64,000 bases of DNA from a virus: positions 1-64,000 of IMG/VR virus record IMGVR_UViG_3300009503_000019, one strand, 5' to 3'. The notes under the pieces are model-generated. The model was not told the origin of the DNA, searched no databases, and was given only the letters and a program-made list of their open reading frames with translations. Both the position numbers and the translations under genes were made by a program. Positions 2,072 through 63,390 of the stretch are shown here, in pieces. Position 1 is the stretch's first letter. Each line of letters opens with the position of its first letter.

Positions 2072-2095
2072 AAAACTTTATTTTTTTAAAAGATT

Positions 2096-2104
2096 TGATA
2101 TAAT
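2096..2104 (+). promoter_or_regulatory. Extended -10 promoter of sRNA A
   Basis: TGaTATAAT; predicted TSS 2111. Confidence 0.6.
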
Positions 2105-2110
2105 GAAGTT

Positions 2111-2170
2111 AGCTTCCATATCCTTTCCTTCCCATAACCTCATCTTAGGGGGGAAACTCCCCCCTATTGA
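2111..2170 (+). ncRNA. Putative anti-SD small RNA A
   Basis: C/U-rich 35 nt with CAU+CCUUUCCUUCC and CAU+ACCUC modules, then hairpin TAGGGGGGA-aac-TCCCCCCTA (2146-2166). Confidence 0.55.
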
Positions 2171-2196
2171 CTTGTTATTTTTTTTGTTTTAATAAT
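2167..2196 (+). promoter_or_regulatory. Sigma70-type promoter, near-leaderless transcript of glycosyltransferase
   Basis: TTGACT then TAATAAT; ATG at 2204; no SD. Confidence 0.45.
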
Positions 2197-2203
2197 TGTT
2201 TTA

Positions 2204-3280
2204 ATGAATGAGAAGTTAAAAGTTCTTTTTGCAACTTCTGATGATCCAAATGTATCCGGATGTGGAGTTTATCGTGTATTGCAACCATCATTGTGGTTAT
2301 CACATTTATTCGGAGATCAGATAGAACTTATGTTTACCGATGTTCTTATGGAAGAAGACATGTATAAGCAGGACATATTTTATTTCACCCGTCAGGCAAA
2401 ACCCGATGTTGTTAATTATGTTGAAAAAATGAAAAAAGAGACAAATAAATTTGTTGTACTCGATTTTGATGATAATTTGAATGCAATTCCTCCTCACATA
2501 GCACATGCCCAAAAGTATTACAATGAGAACAAATCTTATTTGAGAAAAATGATGCAATTGTCCGATTTATTCGTCTTTACACATACATATCTTGCTGAAC
2601 AAACAATTAACACAAATGGGATAAGAAAACCGTTTATTTTATTACCAAATGCAGTGAATGTTGATTATCTAAAAAATCATCCGGATGAAGAAGATAATTG
2701 TGTGAGAATAGGCTGGTTCGGGTCATATACACACAAATATGATTTAGCAATAATTAGGGGGATGATGGAAGAAGTTTATAAGAAATTGAATGGTCAAAAG
2801 AAAATTAAATTGTTCACTATAGGTCCTCCAAAAGAATTCATTCCAGAGTATTTATTTATTTCAAATAATCCTCCATTTGAATGGAAGCATTTATACTGGC
2901 AACCGACGATAAAATACTTAGAAACTATTTTAGATTTGAAAATTCATATAGGACTTGCTCCATTAGAAGATACTTATTTCAATAGATGCAAATCCAATTT
3001 GAAGATGCTTGAATATGTGTGGTGTGGAGCGGTTCCGCTTGCATCCGATGTTTATCCCTATTCAGAGGCATTCACTGCTTATAAACAATACACACATTGT
3101 GAAAATAGATTCAAAGACTGGATTTCAAAATTGATAACATTAATAATGAATTCTGATTTGCGTAAACAAATCCATGATGAATTGAAAAAAGAATTGAATG
3201 AGAAATGGAGTTGTAAAGTTGTATATCAAAAATTTGGAGAAGAATTGCTATCTAAATATAGAGAATTGAATAATAAATAA
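2204..3280 (+). CDS. Glycosyltransferase, GT-B (GT4-like)
   Basis: GCGVYRVLQP, DFDDNL, LPNAVN, IGWFGSYTH, IGLAPLED..FNRCKSNLKMLEY. Confidence 0.85.
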   Translation: MNEKLKVLFATSDDPNVSGCGVYRVLQPSLWLSHLFGDQIELMFTDVLMEEDMYKQDIFYFTRQAKPDVVNYVEKMKKETNKFVVLDFDDNLNAIPPHIAHAQKYYNENKSYLRKMMQLSDLFVFTHTYLAEQTINTNGIRKPFILLPNAVNVDYLKNHPDEEDNCVRIGWFGSYTHKYDLAIIRGMMEEVYKKLNGQKKIKLFTIGPPKEFIPEYLFISNNPPFEWKHLYWQPTIKYLETILDLKIHIGLAPLEDTYFNRCKSNLKMLEYVWCGAVPLASDVYPYSEAFTAYKQYTHCENRFKDWISKLITLIMNSDLRKQIHDELKKELNEKWSCKVVYQKFGEELLSKYRELNNK

Positions 3281-3294
3281 TTCTTTCTTATAAT
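3266..3294 (+). promoter_or_regulatory. Sigma70-type promoter, near-leaderless
   Basis: TTGAAT-17-TATAAT; in-frame ATG at 3304, no SD. Confidence 0.6.
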
Positions 3295-3303
3295 AAAATG
3301 ACA

Positions 3304-4506
3304 ATGTTAAAAAACATTATAAATTTTTATTTAGACGACATTAATATATTTCCGATAAATCTATATGAAGAAGTTATTACATGTTTGCCTGAAACTGTAA
3401 TTTGTTCATTGGACGATAATGAAAGTTTGATTATTCCTAAATATTTTCCAGATACAAAAAAAATAAAATTGTATTTAAAAAGTTCAATCAAAAATAATAA
3501 TGTTGTTGATATTTTTGAGACTTATAATAATACTGGCGATCTGAAAAACGTTTGGAAAACAAACTCTAATTTTGTCTCTTTAGAATTGGTTTCTTTAGAG
3601 ACAAAGATGATGAAAATACAATTGACAAAGAGCACTTCAAAAGATTCTATGATTTACAGAAGCTATTTCCCGACTATCGATTGGACTAACTTTGATGGCG
3701 TTAAATTTAAATGGTTTCAATCTGATTTCGGCAGTAATTTCAATTTTTATATATACGATGGTAAAGTAAAATTGGTAAAAAATATAGAACCTAAAAATGA
3801 ACAAAATTTTGAGGATATATTTTTATTTTTCTCAGAATTCAGTCAAATTGGAACAGGAAATTTTAACTTTGCTACTATAAAAGAAATTGGATTTACAGTT
3901 TTGAGAAGTATAGAAAATACATATGTATATGTAGACGATATTTATTTATTTCCAAAAAGTGATTTCATAACGACTTATGTGGGAAATTATGATATTGATA
4001 ATAATTCTTTTACAAAAATTAAAAGTAATACCAACAAAATAAATCTCGCCTGGAATATTATCGAAATAGATACATCTGATATAAACAATTGGGATTGGAA
4101 TTATATAAAAATTTTTAAAAATCCTTCAAATTTATTCAGATGTGATTTTTATGGCAGTTCGGAAGAATCTAATAGTATCTTCAAAATTGATTCTAATAAC
4201 ACTTTATCTCAAATAAGCGGTAAAATATATTCAGGCTGTTTAATTTATAAAAATATAGTCAGGATAAGTCGAATTGTGCTGTATCCTGACACAGAGTTCA
4301 ATGGGGATATAATCAAAATATACAAATATGATTTTACAATCAGCACTTTTCAAATATTATTTTACAATCCGGCGTTTGGAAGAGAAATTGTAATTGATAT
4401 TAACGATGTTTGTATGAACGGAAGAATTTTTTTAGAAATCTTGCGAAAAAGTAATATTAAACAAATAACTGCAATAATTGAATTTGAAGAAGGGGTAATA
4501 TACTGA
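3304..4506 (+). CDS. Probable virion protein with carbohydrate-binding-like beta-sandwich
   Basis: DWTNFDGVKFKW...FNFATIKEIGF...VYVDDI pattern is typical of galactose-binding/CBM folds. Start moved from 3298 to 3304 on promoter spacing. Confidence 0.5.
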   Translation: MLKNIINFYLDDINIFPINLYEEVITCLPETVICSLDDNESLIIPKYFPDTKKIKLYLKSSIKNNNVVDIFETYNNTGDLKNVWKTNSNFVSLELVSLETKMMKIQLTKSTSKDSMIYRSYFPTIDWTNFDGVKFKWFQSDFGSNFNFYIYDGKVKLVKNIEPKNEQNFEDIFLFFSEFSQIGTGNFNFATIKEIGFTVLRSIENTYVYVDDIYLFPKSDFITTYVGNYDIDNNSFTKIKSNTNKINLAWNIIEIDTSDINNWDWNYIKIFKNPSNLFRCDFYGSSEESNSIFKIDSNNTLSQISGKIYSGCLIYKNIVRISRIVLYPDTEFNGDIIKIYKYDFTISTFQILFYNPAFGREIVIDINDVCMNGRIFLEILRKSNIKQITAIIEFEEGVIY

Positions 4507-5171
4507 TGAAATTGATGTGGGCAGAATTCAAAGACATTGTTTCAAAGTATGATAAACAATTAAAAGGAATTCGTTATGTTGATTTGGGAAATGTGTATTC
4601 TATATGGATTGAGCTCGGAGGAAAGGTTTTTGAATGTGATGTTTATAAAGATACGCAGGACGCTGTTGAATTTGAGACATATTATAAGGCGTATGTAAAA
4701 TCTGAATATATTGAGGGTGGGAAATATGTATCTTCATCATTGCCCGTTGTATTTGGAAATACGATTTGGCGGGGAGATGAAAATGGGATAGAGTTAAAAT
4801 TTTTGATAACCGCAGGTGTTGAAAACTTTTTTGATATTCAAATCACTAAAACAAAATGCCTGCGAGGAGGTAGATATATTATTATGAATCCCGAAGATGT
4901 TCATGAGGATGACTATATTGAGTTTTCAATCATAGATAAGGACAATGTTTTAGGATTATTTCAGATATATGGAGTTCCCGAAGGAGGTTTCCTTGAATTA
5001 ACTAAATTTGTCAAGAAATGGTGGGTATATAAAACACCAACATGGGAGTTCAAGAGTGAGAGTTACAATAAAATTCTTCAAGGATTGTATTTTAGAATTG
5101 GATATAATTCTCACGGCACGGTTGATATAAAACTTAAAGGGACGCTACAATGGATAGAGAATACTTGTTAG
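4506..5171 (+). CDS. Hypothetical (probable virion) protein
   Basis: 221-aa ORF coupled to the upstream gene. Confidence 0.65.
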   Translation: MKLMWAEFKDIVSKYDKQLKGIRYVDLGNVYSIWIELGGKVFECDVYKDTQDAVEFETYYKAYVKSEYIEGGKYVSSSLPVVFGNTIWRGDENGIELKFLITAGVENFFDIQITKTKCLRGGRYIIMNPEDVHEDDYIEFSIIDKDNVLGLFQIYGVPEGGFLELTKFVKKWWVYKTPTWEFKSESYNKILQGLYFRIGYNSHGTVDIKLKGTLQWIENTC

Positions 5172-5183
5172 GAGGTTTAAAAT

Positions 5184-5342
5184 ATGGCAGTAATAGTTGC
5201 TGTGATAAAACCGAATGAAATACAAGGTGAGAAAACAGAAGACGGATATGTGAAAGGAATTGAGCAGATAAATGAAATTAAGAAAATTAAAGTTGAGGAT
5301 AAAGATGTTAATACACTGATTGAAGAGGTAATGAGAAAATGA
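5184..5342 (+). CDS. Small hypothetical protein (52 aa), missing from ORF track
   Basis: GGAGG at 5171-5175; MAVIVAVIKPNE...VMRK*; ATGA overlap with the next gene. Confidence 0.7.
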   Translation: MAVIVAVIKPNEIQGEKTEDGYVKGIEQINEIKKIKVEDKDVNTLIEEVMRK

Positions 5343-5896
5343 ATTTGGTTGAAGGAGCAATAGGATTTTCCAGTTCACCATCATGGATTAGTAAAATTAT
5401 AAAATGGTTTACAAAGTCCAAATGGTCACATTGTTTTGTCATCTGGAAAATTTTTGGACAATCTGATGACGAAATTTTATTGGTAGAAGCAGGTGAATTC
5501 CAGGTTCAAATAGTTCCATTTAGCAAATATGTGCGTGGAAATTATGAATTTGAAATTTTAGATATAATTCCATTAATCAATTCTGAAAAGAAAAAAGAAG
5601 CAGATAAAAAATTGATATCGAAAATAGAAACTCTTTACGGATGGTTACAATTGATTGGTTTCGGAATTGTAATATTATTAAGAAAATGGTTTGGATGGAA
5701 AAGTAAAACGAATATTTGGGGCAAAGGAAAAATATGTTCTGAGATTGTCGCTGAGTATTTAATTGATTGTGGAATTGATTATAAAAGCTTATGCGGAGAT
5801 AAAGACATAAATTTAATTTCACCTGAAGATATATATCAATTTTTGAAAAAAAGGAATTGTTCTGTTATAATGAAGTCATTAAATTTAGGAGGATAA
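5339..5896 (+). CDS. Permuted papain-like amidase (YiiX/YebB-like NlpC/P60)
   Basis: N-terminal SKWSHC (His) precedes C-terminal ICSEIV (Cys). Confidence 0.75.
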   Translation: MNLVEGAIGFSSSPSWISKIIKWFTKSKWSHCFVIWKIFGQSDDEILLVEAGEFQVQIVPFSKYVRGNYEFEILDIIPLINSEKKKEADKKLISKIETLYGWLQLIGFGIVILLRKWFGWKSKTNIWGKGKICSEIVAEYLIDCGIDYKSLCGDKDINLISPEDIYQFLKKRNCSVIMKSLNLGG

Positions 5897-5897
5897 A

Positions 5898-6188
5898 ATG
5901 GTTGATAAAATTGCTGAAGTATTGCTTAAAGAATTTGATTTGATAGTTGGTGGAATCATTATTGCATTGATTGAATGGCCAATATTCAAAACATTAAAAA
6001 AAATAATTATGGAGCAGTGGTGGGACATTCTGGGGTTATTGATAGCAATAATACTTGGAATTGCATACGGATTCATAAGACAATCTGCATTCTCTGCATT
6101 AGAAGCAATTGCAGGTGCACAGTTGATATTTATTTTAATTAAAAAGGGTTTAATTTCTATATTTAATTTTAATAAGAAAAATGGATAG
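5898..6188 (+). CDS. Holin-like membrane protein
   Basis: 96 aa, about 3 hydrophobic helices, basic C-tail; near amidase and SLT. Confidence 0.5.
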   Translation: MVDKIAEVLLKEFDLIVGGIIIALIEWPIFKTLKKIIMEQWWDILGLLIAIILGIAYGFIRQSAFSALEAIAGAQLIFILIKKGLISIFNFNKKNG

Positions 6189-6432
6189 ATTCACATTCTT
6201 AAGATATTTACTACAACAAGCAGGTGCATTAACACCCGACAAATGCTTATTAGATGCAGATGTTTCAAAGCTATTAAAAATTCTAGAAATGTCTGGTAAT
6301 GTTAGTGGACTTTCAAATGATGCTCTGCTTTCATTGATTAAACTTGTGGAGAATGAAATCACGACAAAAAATGCGGATTTGAAAGTTTTGTATAAGATGT
6401 TGACTGATGAAAAAACGAGGAGAGGGTTATGA
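6181..6432 (+). CDS. Hypothetical protein
   Basis: 83-aa ORF overlapping both neighbours. Confidence 0.6.
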   Translation: MDRFTFLRYLLQQAGALTPDKCLLDADVSKLLKILEMSGNVSGLSNDALLSLIKLVENEITTKNADLKVLYKMLTDEKTRRGL

Positions 6433-7976
6433 TAAACCAAACAATAAAACCTTTTGAATATGGCGAAAAATGGTATGTGGATTCAGATAATGGAAACGAT
6501 TTCAATGATGGGAGAAGTTGGAATAGCTCTAAAAAAACACTTCAAAATGCAATAAATAGTGCTAATAGTGGTGATATAATTTTAGCACGAGGATTTTTTA
6601 ATGAAGATATTACCATTTCAAATAAAAACTTAATGATTGTATGTATTGGTGAGACATATATTGCTGGGACAAATGATTTGACTAAAAGCATCATAACAAT
6701 AGATTCTGGAACTGTTATAGTTGTAGGAGGAACATTAGGAATTGTTTGGAATGCTGACCAATCATGTATTCTGCTTGATAACCCTATTGGTAGTCAATCT
6801 GAACAAATTGTTGAAATTTTTGGCGCTGTAGATGATTTAAATGTAGGATGGTGGATAGGAGATTCTTTTAATACTGAAGAATTGACATCCAATAGATTAC
6901 TTGAAAAATATGTAGCAAATGTGGTTCAAAAGCCCTCTCCTGGGGATACAACTTTAGTGGTTCAAGGGAATATAGCCGTTGAGCCATGGCTTTCCGTGAA
7001 AAAATTTATGCAAAGAGGTCATGCGTTGATACCTGCATATATAACAAGGATTTATCAGAACATAACTTATGATAGTGGAAATGATGTATCAATTATTTCT
7101 GGGATTGACCCGCCGTTCACACAGGATACCTTGCCAGGAGACCCACCAAAAAATCAAATTTATCTGTGTGCTATAAAAATCAACCCTTCACAATTTACGG
7201 CACCACATTTTGCTGGAGAACAGATAACAAATAATCCACAGAATTTAAAAAATTTAATTTCTATTCAAGGATTGGCTCTATTTCCTGTGATTTTCGTGGG
7301 TTCAAAAATTATGGCTTTCATAAGCCCACAAGTTCAATTCCCTGTTCCAGTTGCTAATGTTATTTTTGATGGCTGTTGGTTCATGGGATTTAATAGTGTC
7401 GGAAGATACTTTTTTAATTTTATAATGTGGATGCCGTTTAGCCCTTTTGCAATTCGTGATTCTGTTTTTTTACTTACAGAGAGTTCAGGGATAGCACGAA
7501 TATATGGTGTTACAGCAGAAGTATTGCATGCTCTGGGAGCCCCTATGGATAAAGATTTTAGAGATTTGCTTAAAGCAGGCGGATTTTATCACAATATCAT
7601 AAGTGTAGTATCATTTGGTAATTTTGATACGCCCTCCGTAAGAAACTGGATAACTTCAAAAATACAATTGGGTTTAGTGATTGGGAGAGAAGCAACATCA
7701 ATTGATCCCAATACAGGAATAACAATTGAGCCATTGAATTTGGAACTTCCCTTTGCTGAAAACTTATGGGTAAAATATGCAATGTCTGGATTCTTTCCGA
7801 AGTATTATGATATCGTTAAAGACATAAATCAATGTCCTTCTGGGAATGTTGCAAGTGATTATAAAGATAAATCACCATTAAGCAATGTTGCTCCAACTGA
7901 AGAATCGCTTGTGTTTAATGCAGTTGCGTCAATAAAAGATATCATAAGAGCTAAAAAAATAGAAATTATAAAATGA
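6429..7976 (+). CDS. Tail fibre/spike-like protein with pectin-lyase-type beta-helix start
   Basis: WYVDSDNGNDFNDGRSW...KTLQNAIN...GDIILARG motif. Confidence 0.6.
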   Translation: MINQTIKPFEYGEKWYVDSDNGNDFNDGRSWNSSKKTLQNAINSANSGDIILARGFFNEDITISNKNLMIVCIGETYIAGTNDLTKSIITIDSGTVIVVGGTLGIVWNADQSCILLDNPIGSQSEQIVEIFGAVDDLNVGWWIGDSFNTEELTSNRLLEKYVANVVQKPSPGDTTLVVQGNIAVEPWLSVKKFMQRGHALIPAYITRIYQNITYDSGNDVSIISGIDPPFTQDTLPGDPPKNQIYLCAIKINPSQFTAPHFAGEQITNNPQNLKNLISIQGLALFPVIFVGSKIMAFISPQVQFPVPVANVIFDGCWFMGFNSVGRYFFNFIMWMPFSPFAIRDSVFLLTESSGIARIYGVTAEVLHALGAPMDKDFRDLLKAGGFYHNIISVVSFGNFDTPSVRNWITSKIQLGLVIGREATSIDPNTGITIEPLNLELPFAENLWVKYAMSGFFPKYYDIVKDINQCPSGNVASDYKDKSPLSNVAPTEESLVFNAVASIKDIIRAKKIEIIK

Positions 7977-8818
7977 GATATAGAATAGGAGAACAGATTA
8001 TTATTTTCACTACATTATATAATGAACAGGGAAATGTTGTAACTGGTGCAACTATAACTGCGGAGATGGAAAAACCTAATGGTGTATCTGCGGGACCATT
8101 TTTGTCAACAGAAAGTTCATCATTTCCTGGAATTTATAAAATTGAAATTCCGTCTCAAGAATTAGATCAATTAGGCAATTACATAGTTAGAACTCTGTCA
8201 ACGGGTTATTCACCAGAATTTACAACATTTTTCCTGGGACAAAGTGGTGGTGGAGGAGGTGGTGGTATAGGTGCATATAAATTATCAATTGATTGTAAAG
8301 ATCAATATAATCATATTATTTCTGATGCCTTAGTCTCAATAAGAATTGGAAATACAATAATATCTTCGTTGTTAACTGATGTATCAGGACATGCTGAATT
8401 TAATTTAGAAGCCGGAACTTATAATGTTTTAGTTTACAAAGCAGGATATTCATTTGAAAAATATACATTTACAATAAATAATGATGTAACCGCAACAATT
8501 ACCGGCAGCATTCTTTCATTACCTCCCGCAGAAAATCCCGAGTTATGCCGAGTATATATAAGAACAGTAGATTTGGGTTTAGGAGCAGTATCCGGGGTTG
8601 AAATCAATATTAATTATGACGTCCCTGAAGAAATCGGTACTAATTTAGGAATAGATAAATGGACAAAAGTTATTACAGACAATAATGGAGTTGCATATTT
8701 CGACGCGCCTAAAGGAAGCAATGTGTTGGTGCGTGTACATAAAGCTAGTGTTAATGTTAAAGTGAAAATACCTGATAAAGATTCAGTTTATTTGACTGAT
8801 TTATTTGAATTTACATGA
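7973..8818 (+). CDS. Virion protein with Ig/prealbumin-like domains
   Basis: Beta-rich domains separated by a poly-Gly linker; GTYNVLVYKAGY motif. Confidence 0.55.
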   Translation: MRYRIGEQIIIFTTLYNEQGNVVTGATITAEMEKPNGVSAGPFLSTESSSFPGIYKIEIPSQELDQLGNYIVRTLSTGYSPEFTTFFLGQSGGGGGGGIGAYKLSIDCKDQYNHIISDALVSIRIGNTIISSLLTDVSGHAEFNLEAGTYNVLVYKAGYSFEKYTFTINNDVTATITGSILSLPPAENPELCRVYIRTVDLGLGAVSGVEININYDVPEEIGTNLGIDKWTKVITDNNGVAYFDAPKGSNVLVRVHKASVNVKVKIPDKDSVYLTDLFEFT

Positions 8819-8820
8819 TT

Positions 8821-8832
8821 TTTTGTTATAAA
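8821..8832 (+). promoter_or_regulatory. Phage promoter motif TTTTGTTATAAA (drives sRNA B)
   Basis: Exact 12-mer found 8 times upstream of transcription units. Confidence 0.7.
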
Positions 8833-8838
8833 ATAAAT

Positions 8839-8900
8839 AACCTTCATACTTACCTCCTTACCATATCCCTTCCTCATGGGGAGAGCATTTGCTCTCCCTT
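8839..8900 (+). ncRNA. Putative anti-SD small RNA B
   Basis: Contains CAU-ACUU-ACCUCCUUA (16S 3'-end-like) and CAU-AU-CCCUUCCU, then hairpin GGGAGAGC-attt-GCTCTCCC (8879-8898). Confidence 0.6.
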
Positions 8901-8927
8901 AATAAAAAATAATTAAAGGAGGATATA

Positions 8928-9476
8928 ATGGTAAAAAAAATATTCCCAGTAATACTATTTTATTTATGCATAATTTTCCTTATGAAAATATTCTTTGATT
9001 ATAGATTAGTAGAAAAAAAAGAAAATAATTATAATAAAATTTGTTCAATTGAAGAAGAAAGATTTGATCCGATACAATATGATTCAAGATTTAATTTTAT
9101 TGATGATATAAATTATAGAAATGCTATTTTTCATTATGGTAAGAATCTATCTTATTATATAAATGATCCATATGGATTTTTAATTGCATTGTCATGTGTA
9201 GAAAGTTCATTCGGGAAAAATCAATATGGCAAAGATGGAGAAAAAGGACTTTTTCAAATACATCCTTACTGGAAGAGAGTTTATAATTTAGAAGAAATGT
9301 ATCTAGAAAACCCTGAAATTAATGTATATATTGCCGTTGATATTTTAACAAAATTATTCAAAACATATGGAGATCCTTTTATTGTATTAAATGTGTATAA
9401 CACTGGAAATAATAAGAAAAAAAATAAAAAATATATAAATAGATTTCTTGAATGTTATACAAAAATAAATTTTTAA
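8928..9476 (+). CDS. Lytic transglycosylase (SLT) with N-terminal signal-anchor
   Basis: VESS catalytic Glu, GLFQI, YNTG motifs; hydrophobic N-terminus. Confidence 0.85.
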   Translation: MVKKIFPVILFYLCIIFLMKIFFDYRLVEKKENNYNKICSIEEERFDPIQYDSRFNFIDDINYRNAIFHYGKNLSYYINDPYGFLIALSCVESSFGKNQYGKDGEKGLFQIHPYWKRVYNLEEMYLENPEINVYIAVDILTKLFKTYGDPFIVLNVYNTGNNKKKNKKYINRFLECYTKINF

Positions 9477-10369: not shown

Positions 10370-10605
10370 TTTCAAAAATCGATAGCGGTAAAATCGCTAT
10401 TTTTTAAAAGGAAATAGGGAGAGTAGGGGTCGCACTAGATCGTTAAAATTTCGAAGGTCAAAATGGTTAACATTTCAAAAAAAATAGTATTAAAAAGGAA
10501 TAGTTATTTGAAAAAAATAAAATTGATTCGTGATATTTTATACAACATGTAATGAAATTGATATCATTTTTTTTCAATTCTAATAATGTTCGTAATTTTA
10601 TACCT

Positions 10606-24656: not shown

Positions 24657-24739
24657 TTTTACCTCCTTTTTCCCCCATTGCGCATGGGATTAGAACCCTT
24701 CGCGTGGGGGAAATAATTTTGTATTTTCATTACAATTAA

Positions 24740-24751
24740 TTTATAACAAAA
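24740..24751 (-). promoter_or_regulatory. Promoter motif TTTTGTTATAAA
   Basis: Exact motif. Confidence 0.7.
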
Positions 24752-24772
24752 AAATTAAAGATTTGTAATATC

Positions 24773-50392: not shown

Positions 50393-50421
50393 ATTTTAGA
50401 AAAAATTGTTATAATATTCAA
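50393..50421 (-). promoter_or_regulatory. Sigma70-type promoter, leaderless ASCH mRNA
   Basis: TTGAAT-17-TAAAAT; ATG 7 nt after the -10. Confidence 0.65.
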
Positions 50422-62367: not shown

Positions 62368-63339
62368 ATGTACGGAAATACAATGAGATTATTCTTAAAT
62401 AAATTAGACACAGGTTTATCAAAAGAGGCACAAGGAGCCCTTGCAACAGTAATAAGAAGAAAAGTTCGTGAAAGAGGTATATCTCCAAGAGTTATTCCTT
62501 TTGAAACAATAAGTCCAGGAGATGTGAGAATTCAGAGAGATCTTGATAGAGATATTATCTATTTTGTTGGTGAAAAAGAAGCTGATTCTTATGCAATGGT
62601 TCTTACTCTTGAAGGTAAACCCGGTATAATTGAGCCCAGAGGTACAAGATTTAGGGTTGATTTCTATCAGTTTGCAACTCCGAAAGTCAAAAAGCATGAA
62701 ATCAATCTTCTTTCCTATACATATTCATTTGAAAAATGGTTAGAAGAAAATGTTGTATATGATATTGAAGAAGCTTACGATACCAAATTCTTAACACTTG
62801 CTTTGAGATCGGCTGAAACGACAAATCAGATTGTTCAAACTACAAGTGCAAAATTTACACTTAATGATTTAATTGATCTTCAAAAAGTATTAACTCAAAC
62901 AAAGAAGGCTTCTGATGCTAATATTGTAGTTATGAATAAAACTACATTCCTTGAGTTCTTATCACAGGGTACAACAGTATTCGGTGATGTTCTGCAGAAG
63001 GAAATTGTAATCAATGGATACAAATATCAAACTCTACTTGATACTGCATTTGTCGTAACTGAAAATAATGTTGTCGTTCCTCCAGGAATAGTTTATGCAT
63101 TTGCAAAACCTCAGTATCTTGGTGTAGTTCCAGTTCTTCATGATATAAAATTTTTCATCAAGAAAGAAGGACCAGAAGTTGAATGGAATACATGGTCAAT
63201 ACTCGGAATGAACATTGCTAATGCTTATGGGGTTGCGGTTTTAATTTATGGCTCTAAAGGTTGGTCTGTTAAAAATGGTAAAATCACATATACAGTAGAC
63301 ACTGTTGATTACACCGAACCACCATATCCTGAGAAGTAA
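62368..63339 (+). CDS. Major capsid protein (HK97-like)
   Basis: Size, strong RBS, followed by a terminator, position after scaffold/decoration; SKEA at residues 18-21. Confidence 0.8.
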   Translation: MYGNTMRLFLNKLDTGLSKEAQGALATVIRRKVRERGISPRVIPFETISPGDVRIQRDLDRDIIYFVGEKEADSYAMVLTLEGKPGIIEPRGTRFRVDFYQFATPKVKKHEINLLSYTYSFEKWLEENVVYDIEEAYDTKFLTLALRSAETTNQIVQTTSAKFTLNDLIDLQKVLTQTKKASDANIVVMNKTTFLEFLSQGTTVFGDVLQKEIVINGYKYQTLLDTAFVVTENNVVVPPGIVYAFAKPQYLGVVPVLHDIKFFIKKEGPEVEWNTWSILGMNIANAYGVAVLIYGSKGWSVKNGKITYTVDTVDYTEPPYPEK

Positions 63340-63362
63340 ATTGTTGTTCTTTTGTATAATTG

Positions 63363-63390
63363 AAGGAGGGGTAAATCCCCTCCTTTTTTT
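63363..63390 (+). terminator. Intrinsic terminator after MCP
   Basis: AAGGAGGGG-taaat-CCCCTCCTT followed by a T-run. Confidence 0.9.

Follow-up and report, generated by a model that had tools for sequence, protein, structure and literature searches.

The window analysed here, 64,000 nt with a G+C content of 30%, opens a linear IMG/VR virus record of 121,041 bp that is about 66% complete, and the public runs that contain the sequence of this record are hot-spring metagenomes, with no RNA run among those listed. All genes between positions 1 and 9476 lie on the plus strand, and sizeable gaps occur in this block at two places only: 2072-2203, which holds the candidate small RNA studied in this work (A), and 8819-8927, which holds another one (sRNA B). 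Upstream of A ends a sigma-like gene, whose product matches the Pfam family Sigma70_r3 with an E-value of 4.7e-5, just under the curated cut-off; proteins 90% and 79% identical to this product exist, and a 90%-identical one carries the JGI name "specialized sigma subunit". Downstream, a glycosyltransferase-like (GT) gene opens the interval between the sigma and SLT genes (2072-8927), which holds about 6.7-6.9 kb of plus-strand glycosyltransferase, beta-helix and Ig-like genes, with A and B at its opposite edges (Table 1). A sigma profile search gave 29 loci, of which only one (L003, 77% amino acid identity) is close, and there 2.7 kb of minus-strand genes replace this interval (L003:1998-4495). 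On such gene order, the sigma-to-SLT interval is read as a swappable cassette.

Table 1. Features at the locus of A and related features in the window and in the rest of the genome.
Feature	Position	Strand	Basis or remark
Sigma-like gene, 233 aa	1370..2071	+	ORF; TAA stop at 2069-2071
Extended -10 promoter box TGATATAAT (P_A)	2096-2104	+	Sequence match; matrix score
Predicted transcription start, A or G	2111-2112	+	From spacing, 7-8 nt past the -10 box
G-free tract, 35 nt, 40% C	2113-2147	+	G-free run in the sequence
Module 1, CCAUAUCCUUUCCUUCC, complement of GGAAGGAAAGGAUAUGG	2116-2132	+	Sequence
Module 2, CAUAACCUCAU, complement of AUGAGGUUAUG	2133-2143	+	Sequence
Extended terminator stem, AUAAC/GUUAU and UCA/UGA enclosing the core hairpin	2134-2178	+	Folding
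Core GC hairpin, UAGGGGGGA-AAC-UCCCCCCUA	2146-2166	+	9 bp with 3-nt loop, or 8 bp with 5-nt loop
Promoter-like TTGACT-18-AATAAT before the GT gene	2167-2196	+	10/12 consensus matches
U-run UUUUUUUGUUUU, likely 3′ end region	2179-2190	+	Adjoins the extended stem; 12 nt past the core hairpin
GT gene, first of the variable cassette	2204..3280	+	ORF; Pfam
sRNA B	8839-8950	+	29 nt upstream of the SLT gene
Promoters of the tttttTGTTATAAA class in the window (examples)	12424(-), 17899(-), 24057(-), 38518(-), 50407(+)
Other TATAAT-N6-7-ATG starts without SD	33105, 51842, 54193 (window); 64143, 64580, 75662, 105524 (genome)

An earlier sequence-only reading of this DNA had described in the gap behind the sigma gene a promoter box TGATATAAT, followed by the sequence AGCUUCCAUAUCCUUUCCUUCCCAUAACCUCAUCU and a 9-bp hairpin, and all three are indeed there, the second of them at 2111-2145. 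The main promoter class of this phage is tttttTGTTATAAA, an extended -10 element with no clear -35, whose members sit 20-105 nt upstream of genes led by a Shine-Dalgarno sequence (SD), nearly all on the minus strand. A position matrix was built from 22 other promoters of the phage, with both A and B left out; under it, P_A scores 13.9 bits and ranks 20th among 242,034 positions, the promoter site of B ranks 17th, and every site above P_A is either a training promoter or B, so that A and B are the two best untrained matches to the class in the 121-kb genome. The motif TGNTATAAW is also enriched between genes: intergenic DNA makes up 5.7% of the genome and contains 21 of its 68 sites (p 1e-10); TGNTATAAT alone occurs at chance level in the window (10 sites vs 9.0 expected). 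P_A is thus probably functional. The +7 rule places the start of A on A2111 and that of B on its AACCUUCAU, so that the promoter of A would lie 6-8 nt upstream of a start of the form A-R-C-Y.

Other structured segments occur near promoters of this phage. About 50 nt after a TGTTATAAT promoter at 50407, the segment 50467-50553 (+) encodes a very stable structured RNA (-40.2 kcal/mol, z -5.2). Its closing stem, GCGUCGGCUCCC/GGGAGCCGAACGC, is long, and its internal loop, UUCCUUAUCACCUCUC, comprises 16 nt that are unpaired and rich in C and U. A doubtful ORF with a TTG start overlaps the segment. Two leaders, at 24657-24772 (-) and 116436-116527 (-), carry hairpins that resemble the T-arm of tRNAs (GGGTTCTAATCCC and GGGGTTCGAATCCTCGC), behind consensus promoters and directly 5′ of the SD of the next gene. 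Outside the window, the intergenic segment 83126-83235 (-) of the genome seems to resemble a long-arm (type II) tRNA gene.

The pyrimidine-rich tract that follows P_A has at least 24 nt of G-poor, C-rich sequence, predicted to be unpaired, directly 5′ of a GC hairpin. Positions 2111-2133 are predicted by folding to be unpaired with a probability of about 0.9 or more from 37 to 75 °C, which makes them the likely seed. The two modules that had been described as complementary to GGAAGGAAAGGAUAUGG and AUGAGGUUAUG are exact complements of these sequences, with module 2 falling mostly within the lower terminator stem at temperatures up to 55 °C. The tract does not contain CCUCC; it has CCUUUCC, CCUUCC and CCUC, together with a single UCCC at 2130-2133. 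Of three CAU triplets in the G-free region, two fall in the part predicted to be unpaired, 2111-2133, and the lower stem takes in the other. On the plus strand, the predicted RNA contains neither a start codon nor an SD.

Folding of 2111-2190 gives a minimum free energy (MFE) of -19.8 kcal/mol (z -3.0), and the core hairpin is predicted to be stable up to 75 °C. It is followed by UUGACUUGUUA and only then by the U-run, and owing to this distance of 12 nt a scan for consensus terminators made no call. In folds at 37 and 55 °C, a lower stem (2134-2138 with 2174-2178, and 2140-2142 with 2168-2170) extends the hairpin to the U-run; from 65 °C upwards its outer AUAAC/GUUAU part is gone and the stem no longer reaches the U-run. 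The 3′ end would therefore be expected at about 2179-2190, and not at 2170 as first proposed. With these features the unit looks like one closed by an intrinsic terminator, which would yield an RNA of about 70-80 nt, and termination at the temperature of the spring may be partial. Since the core hairpin is the only hairpin between 2071 and 2204, and hence the sole candidate terminator 3′ of the sigma gene, it very probably also ends the transcript of that gene.

The GT gene downstream has no SD, and its ATG at 2204 lies 7 nt behind an AATAAT (2191-2196), a spacing that fits the SD-less TATAAT-N6-7-ATG arrangement found at seven other starts of the genome (Table 1). This arrangement suggests that such genes make leaderless mRNAs, and the GT gene seems to have its own promoter of the leaderless type. 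Around 40% of the crude gene calls lack an SD, which is present in 48% of the plus-strand genes vs 73% of the minus-strand ones. Moreover, no complement of the tract of A was found in the GT start region, and thus no pairing in cis. As the GT gene lacks both an SD and complementarity to the tract and has a -10 box of its own, nothing else is evident that P_A would drive.

A is not the only unit of this kind in the genome. A descriptor asking for 32 nt with at most one G and at least nine C, and immediately 3′ of them a perfect hairpin (6 bp or more, with four or more GC pairs), was run over both strands of the 121 kb and matches exactly two places, A and B; 40 shuffles within 200-nt blocks gave 0.05 matches on average. 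A relaxed descriptor recovers a third unit, C, plus a few matches that are explained otherwise, as they lie near a reported inverted repeat, like those at 10432(-) and 19216(-), which were not counted in the family, or within another structure. A, B and C are therewith the only intergenic cases of a C-rich, G-poor tract with a strong hairpin in the 121 kb. Among 30 loci from relatives, the sole further match to the descriptor is L003:4398-4480.

Between A and B, the collinear alignment from the -10 box to the hairpin reaches a score that only 1 of 500 block shuffles attained, and A also aligns collinearly with the L003 unit (12 of 500 shuffles); the alignment of A with C is not significant (319 of 500). 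MAFFT placed the hairpin arms of B out of register with those of C and the L003 unit. The details that had been noted as common to the units are real: CCATATCC occurs in A (2116) and B (8861), CCTCAT precedes the hairpin in both, and the starts are AGCUUCCAU in A, AACCUUCAU in B and AGCCCAU in C. Aligned on their A-R-C-Y starts, A, B, C and the L003 unit begin with AGCUUCC, AACCUUC, AGCCCAU and ACUUCUU. Across the window there are five copies of CCATATCC where 1.5 are expected, a number reached in 2 of 100 shuffles. A third CCATATCC, falling inside the end of the gene 62368..63339, lies 41 nt upstream of a canonical terminator, AAGGAGGGG/CCCCTCCTT with a U-run (63322-63385, plus strand), and a TGTATAAT box stands between the two, adjoining the hairpin. 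Comparison of the sequences thus supports the view that A is built like B, C and the L003 unit, with a promoter, a start of the form A-R-C-Y, a CU tract poor in G and a GC hairpin.

The surroundings of the sister units differ in ways that bear on the interpretation of A. No U-tract follows the hairpin of B, and in the MFE fold the SD and AUG of the SLT gene are paired in cis with its CU tract, UUACCAUAUCC..CUUCCU (-28.9 vs -17 kcal/mol). Lacking a U-tract and able to fold onto this SD and AUG, B may act as a 5′ leader instead of, or besides, a trans-acting RNA, and by extension the RNAs of the CU-tail family may be cis-acting leaders. The SLT start region, however, ranks just 47th of 178 phage start regions for B, so that this pairing in cis is not special, and none of A, B and C prefers that region as a target among the 178. 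C is located between convergent genes, with no downstream gene on its strand. The L003 unit consists of TTGAAA-17-TATAGT, then ACUUCUUUCUUUCCUCUUCCACAUUCCCUCUUG, a hairpin AGGGGAGG/CCUCCCCU and UUUUCUGUU, a clean U-tract terminator; it precedes the SLT gene of L003, with a consensus promoter, TGTTATAAA, directly 3′ of it and genes on the opposite strand upstream. Given those minus-strand genes upstream and the separate promoter downstream, the L003 unit can be neither the terminator of an upstream gene nor a leader, and it is the best support for free-standing small RNAs within the CU-tail family.

The locus of A, by contrast with its build, is not conserved in the relatives compared. In L003 a convergent gene comes directly after the sigma gene and A is missing, and 28 more distant loci likewise have no A behind their sigma gene. 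Only near-identical strains carry it, such as that of a Logan contig (X2) identical across 1768-2440. The matches of the Logan pieces X3 and X4, from two hot-spring runs of 2025, end or diverge at 2043 and 2115; at 2115, where the tract begins, ends the match of a relative's contig that is about 97% identical, with 16 differences in 503 nt. A blastn search against a phage collection gave no match, and scans of viral contigs with the sigma, GT and 522-aa structural-region proteins and with an exact 22-mer of A gave no close relative; a search of genome contigs gave one match, of 41%, in a Desulfovibrio MAG.

A had been described as an anti-RBS RNA, and the tracts of A, B and C were compared with 178 predicted start regions of the phage (-25 to +12). 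For A, the mean duplex energy is -10.1 kcal/mol vs -9.4 ± 0.7 for shuffled seeds, about 1 SD better, and its best target reaches -23.2 vs -21.1 ± 2.8 for the best of the shuffles, with no target that stands out; for B and C the advantage over their own shuffles is about 2 SD. The strongest site for A in the phage (75,27x) lies on the minus strand, where an ORF has its 3′ end. Complementarity of the A seed to these 178 regions is thus not beyond what composition gives, and shows no defined target; with energies within the range of the shuffles, the anti-RBS property is an effect of composition, C/U against purine-rich leaders. As A has no CCUCC either, its anti-RBS label finds no specific support. 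Of the proposal that A belongs with B to one family with different targets, the family is supported by the common build and the alignment, while the targets reduce to composition. The 17-mer GGAAGGAAAGGATATGG has exact matches in the genomes of many unrelated bacteria, at least 120 of them; these point neither to hot springs nor to any taxon, and hence do not identify a host. In 79 of the 120 matches listed, the ATG of GGAAGGAAAGGAUAUGG opens an ORF of at least 60 codons.

These observations would fit the following course of events. A host-type RNA polymerase would start from TGATATAAT at about 2111 and stop at the hairpin and U-run, around 2179-2190, to give an RNA of some 70-80 nt, and the transcript of the sigma gene would end at the same terminator, as in small RNAs that share a 3′ end with a gene and have their own promoter. 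The first 23-35 nt, free of G, rich in C and U and unfolded, would then pair with purine-rich SD and AUG regions of host or phage messages and so block the 30S subunit. We infer all three elements of this scheme, the firing of the promoter, the stop at the terminator and the pairing with start regions, from the sequence. That a discrete short transcript is made from A is rather likely; the rank of the promoter, the rarity of the tract with its hairpin and the apparent own promoter of the GT gene make a separate small transcription unit more likely. To the complete reading, where A would be a free-standing small RNA that works by base pairing to start regions, we assign tentatively a probability of about 0.45.

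The main rival to a free-standing A is a leader or attenuator, in which P_A would drive the cassette 2204-8818 and the tract with its hairpin and U-run would work as a regulated stop or as an element of the 5′ UTR. It owes this rank to the fold of B onto the SD and AUG of the SLT gene, together with the structured leaders behind promoters of the same class: those at 24748(-), 116527(-) and 50407(+), and that of B, precede structured leaders of 90-105 nt, and P_A lies 108 nt upstream of the ATG at 2204. A and B are moreover collinear paralogues, B has no U-tract and pairs in cis at -28.9 vs -17 kcal/mol, and the terminator of A is imperfect. We nonetheless consider a leader unlikely, because the GT gene has neither an SD nor complementarity to the tract and fits the leaderless TATAAT-N6-7-ATG class, C has no gene downstream on its strand, the L003 unit has its own terminator U-tract and then a separate promoter, and the 47th place of the SLT start region among 178 takes away the special character of the pairing of B. 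Quite unlikely, too, is a terminator of the sigma operon and nothing else, with TGATATAAT silent or incidental and the CU tract devoid of any function at the RNA level. The hairpin is after all the sole one between 2071 and 2204, TGNTATAAT comes at chance frequency in a window of 30% GC, A is missing in L003 and no specific target emerged; yet this leaves aside the matrix rank of P_A (20 of 242,034), a G-free tract of 35 nt and 40% C that is far from chance in an AT-rich spacer, two clear canonical terminators (24080 minus and 63363 plus) that have no such tract, and the same build in the L003 unit, where no upstream gene could use it.

Another possibility, which we regard as improbable, is that A binds a protein and not particular messages, as a decoy whose tract mimics the 3′ end of the 16S rRNA or sponges a factor that binds pyrimidines, such as ribosomal protein S1 or a nuclease directed against the anti-SD. 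A generic mimic would be expected to lack target specificity, as A, B and C do; the units come in several copies of differing sequence and common composition, and B carries ACCUCCUUA, which we take to be equal to the 16S 3′ end; but A itself has no CCUCC, and the decoy is pure inference for which no partner protein was identified. A bolder and very improbable version holds that A, B and C, transcribed from promoters of the host type, mimic the anti-Shine-Dalgarno tail of the ribosome, soaking up SDs in general and favouring SD-less or leaderless phage messages, in a genome where at least eight genes have a -10 box 6-7 nt before the ATG; if true, it would be an RNA-only counterpart of the shut-off of the T4 RegA/RegB type. 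Least credible of all is a coding function, either through a plus-strand ORF of 29 codons (2103-2192, MKLASISFPSHNLILGGKLPPIDLLFFLF) or through minus-strand micro-ORFs behind SD-like purine runs. An ATG at 2103 does open that frame through A, C holds a frame of 29 codons in the same register, and the minus strand reads GAGG..AUG and AAGGAAAGGAUAUG. DNA free of G, however, can hold no stops other than TAA, so that open frames are expected by chance, and both the plus-strand ORF and the micro-ORFs were judged by-products of such sequence: no SD lies upstream of 2103, whose ATG precedes the predicted transcription start, the tract of B has no start codon in any frame, and on the minus strand there is no promoter, the spacings from SD to AUG are 0-2 nt and the neighbouring genes are all on the other strand.

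Among known systems, no Rfam family reaches its gathering score anywhere in the window, and around A only chance-level matches appear at E-values up to 10. The match to LhrC (RF00616), at 18 bits vs a gathering score of 110 (E 1.7), led us to reject membership of that family. By analogy, A would be most like the csRNAs of Streptococcus with a single hairpin, and also like CU-seed RNAs of the LhrC/RsaE type, and a member of neither. The csRNAs are multicopy RNAs of 51-202 nt dependent on CiaRH, encoded as promoter and terminator in intergenic DNA (PMC3091779, PMC4507080), with an unpaired stretch complementary to the SD and a CAU anti-start codon, and 16 predicted types have the terminator stem-loop only; their genes are defined by a conserved nonamer and by a CiaR repeat, (N)TTAAG-N5-TTTAAG, located 10 bp 5′ of the -10 box (PMC3091779). 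A, likewise a multicopy unit of promoter and terminator, has the unpaired anti-SD and CAU motifs followed by a terminator stem-loop alone, but not the conserved nonamer, and the repeat NTTAAG-N5-TTTAAG was not found upstream of its -10 box (sequence AAAAACTTTATTTTTTTAAAAGATT). Furthermore, csRNAs are chromosomal, belong to a mesophilic Gram-positive genus and have transcripts and targets shown experimentally, whereas A is phage-borne and predicted from sequence.

The c4 RNA of phages P1 and P7 is also phage-encoded and blocks translation by pairing around a ribosome-binding site, a role that for A is conjectural; c4 is, however, processed from a longer transcript, has its pairing sequences in loops and acts on one defined message, ant (PMC12197685), whereas no cognate phage target was found for A among the 178 start regions. 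LhrC1-5 of Listeria and RsaE/RoxS share with A the redundant siblings and the exposed C/U-rich UCCC motifs, which in those RNAs pair with SD regions and lie in loops and between hairpins; in A they would form a long 5′ tail. Small RNAs of the 3′-UTR type I, such as DapZ and MicL, have their own promoter and share the terminator of the upstream gene; they are enterobacterial and Hfq-dependent, with conserved seeds. A resembles them in a promoter just behind or inside the end of the upstream gene, a single shared intrinsic terminator and a single-stranded 5′ seed, and differs in that its promoter lies wholly past the stop codon and that the one relative available does not share its seed. Finally, the PR'-6S RNA of lambda, with its terminator tR', is a leader under Q antitermination. 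A strong promoter and a short terminated transcript directly before a block of structural or late-type genes recall the arrangement of A, but neither a Q-like gene nor a qut site or pause signal was identified, and C and the L003 unit do not precede genes in this manner.

A 2025 review of phage small RNAs lists mostly those of enterobacterial prophages (PMC12197685). Almost nothing is known about the regulatory RNAs of virulent, uncultured and thermophilic phages. The practical gain is one of annotation, as a promoter matrix for this phage and a recognised class of leaderless genes help to separate small-RNA units from ordinary operon boundaries. A itself is one unconserved copy within the CU-tail family of the genome. 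Should the family be real, its units would make a compact part for synthetic biology at high temperature, and for the phage, a family built from a promoter, a CU tail and a hairpin would provide a simple and portable means of acting against translation initiation.
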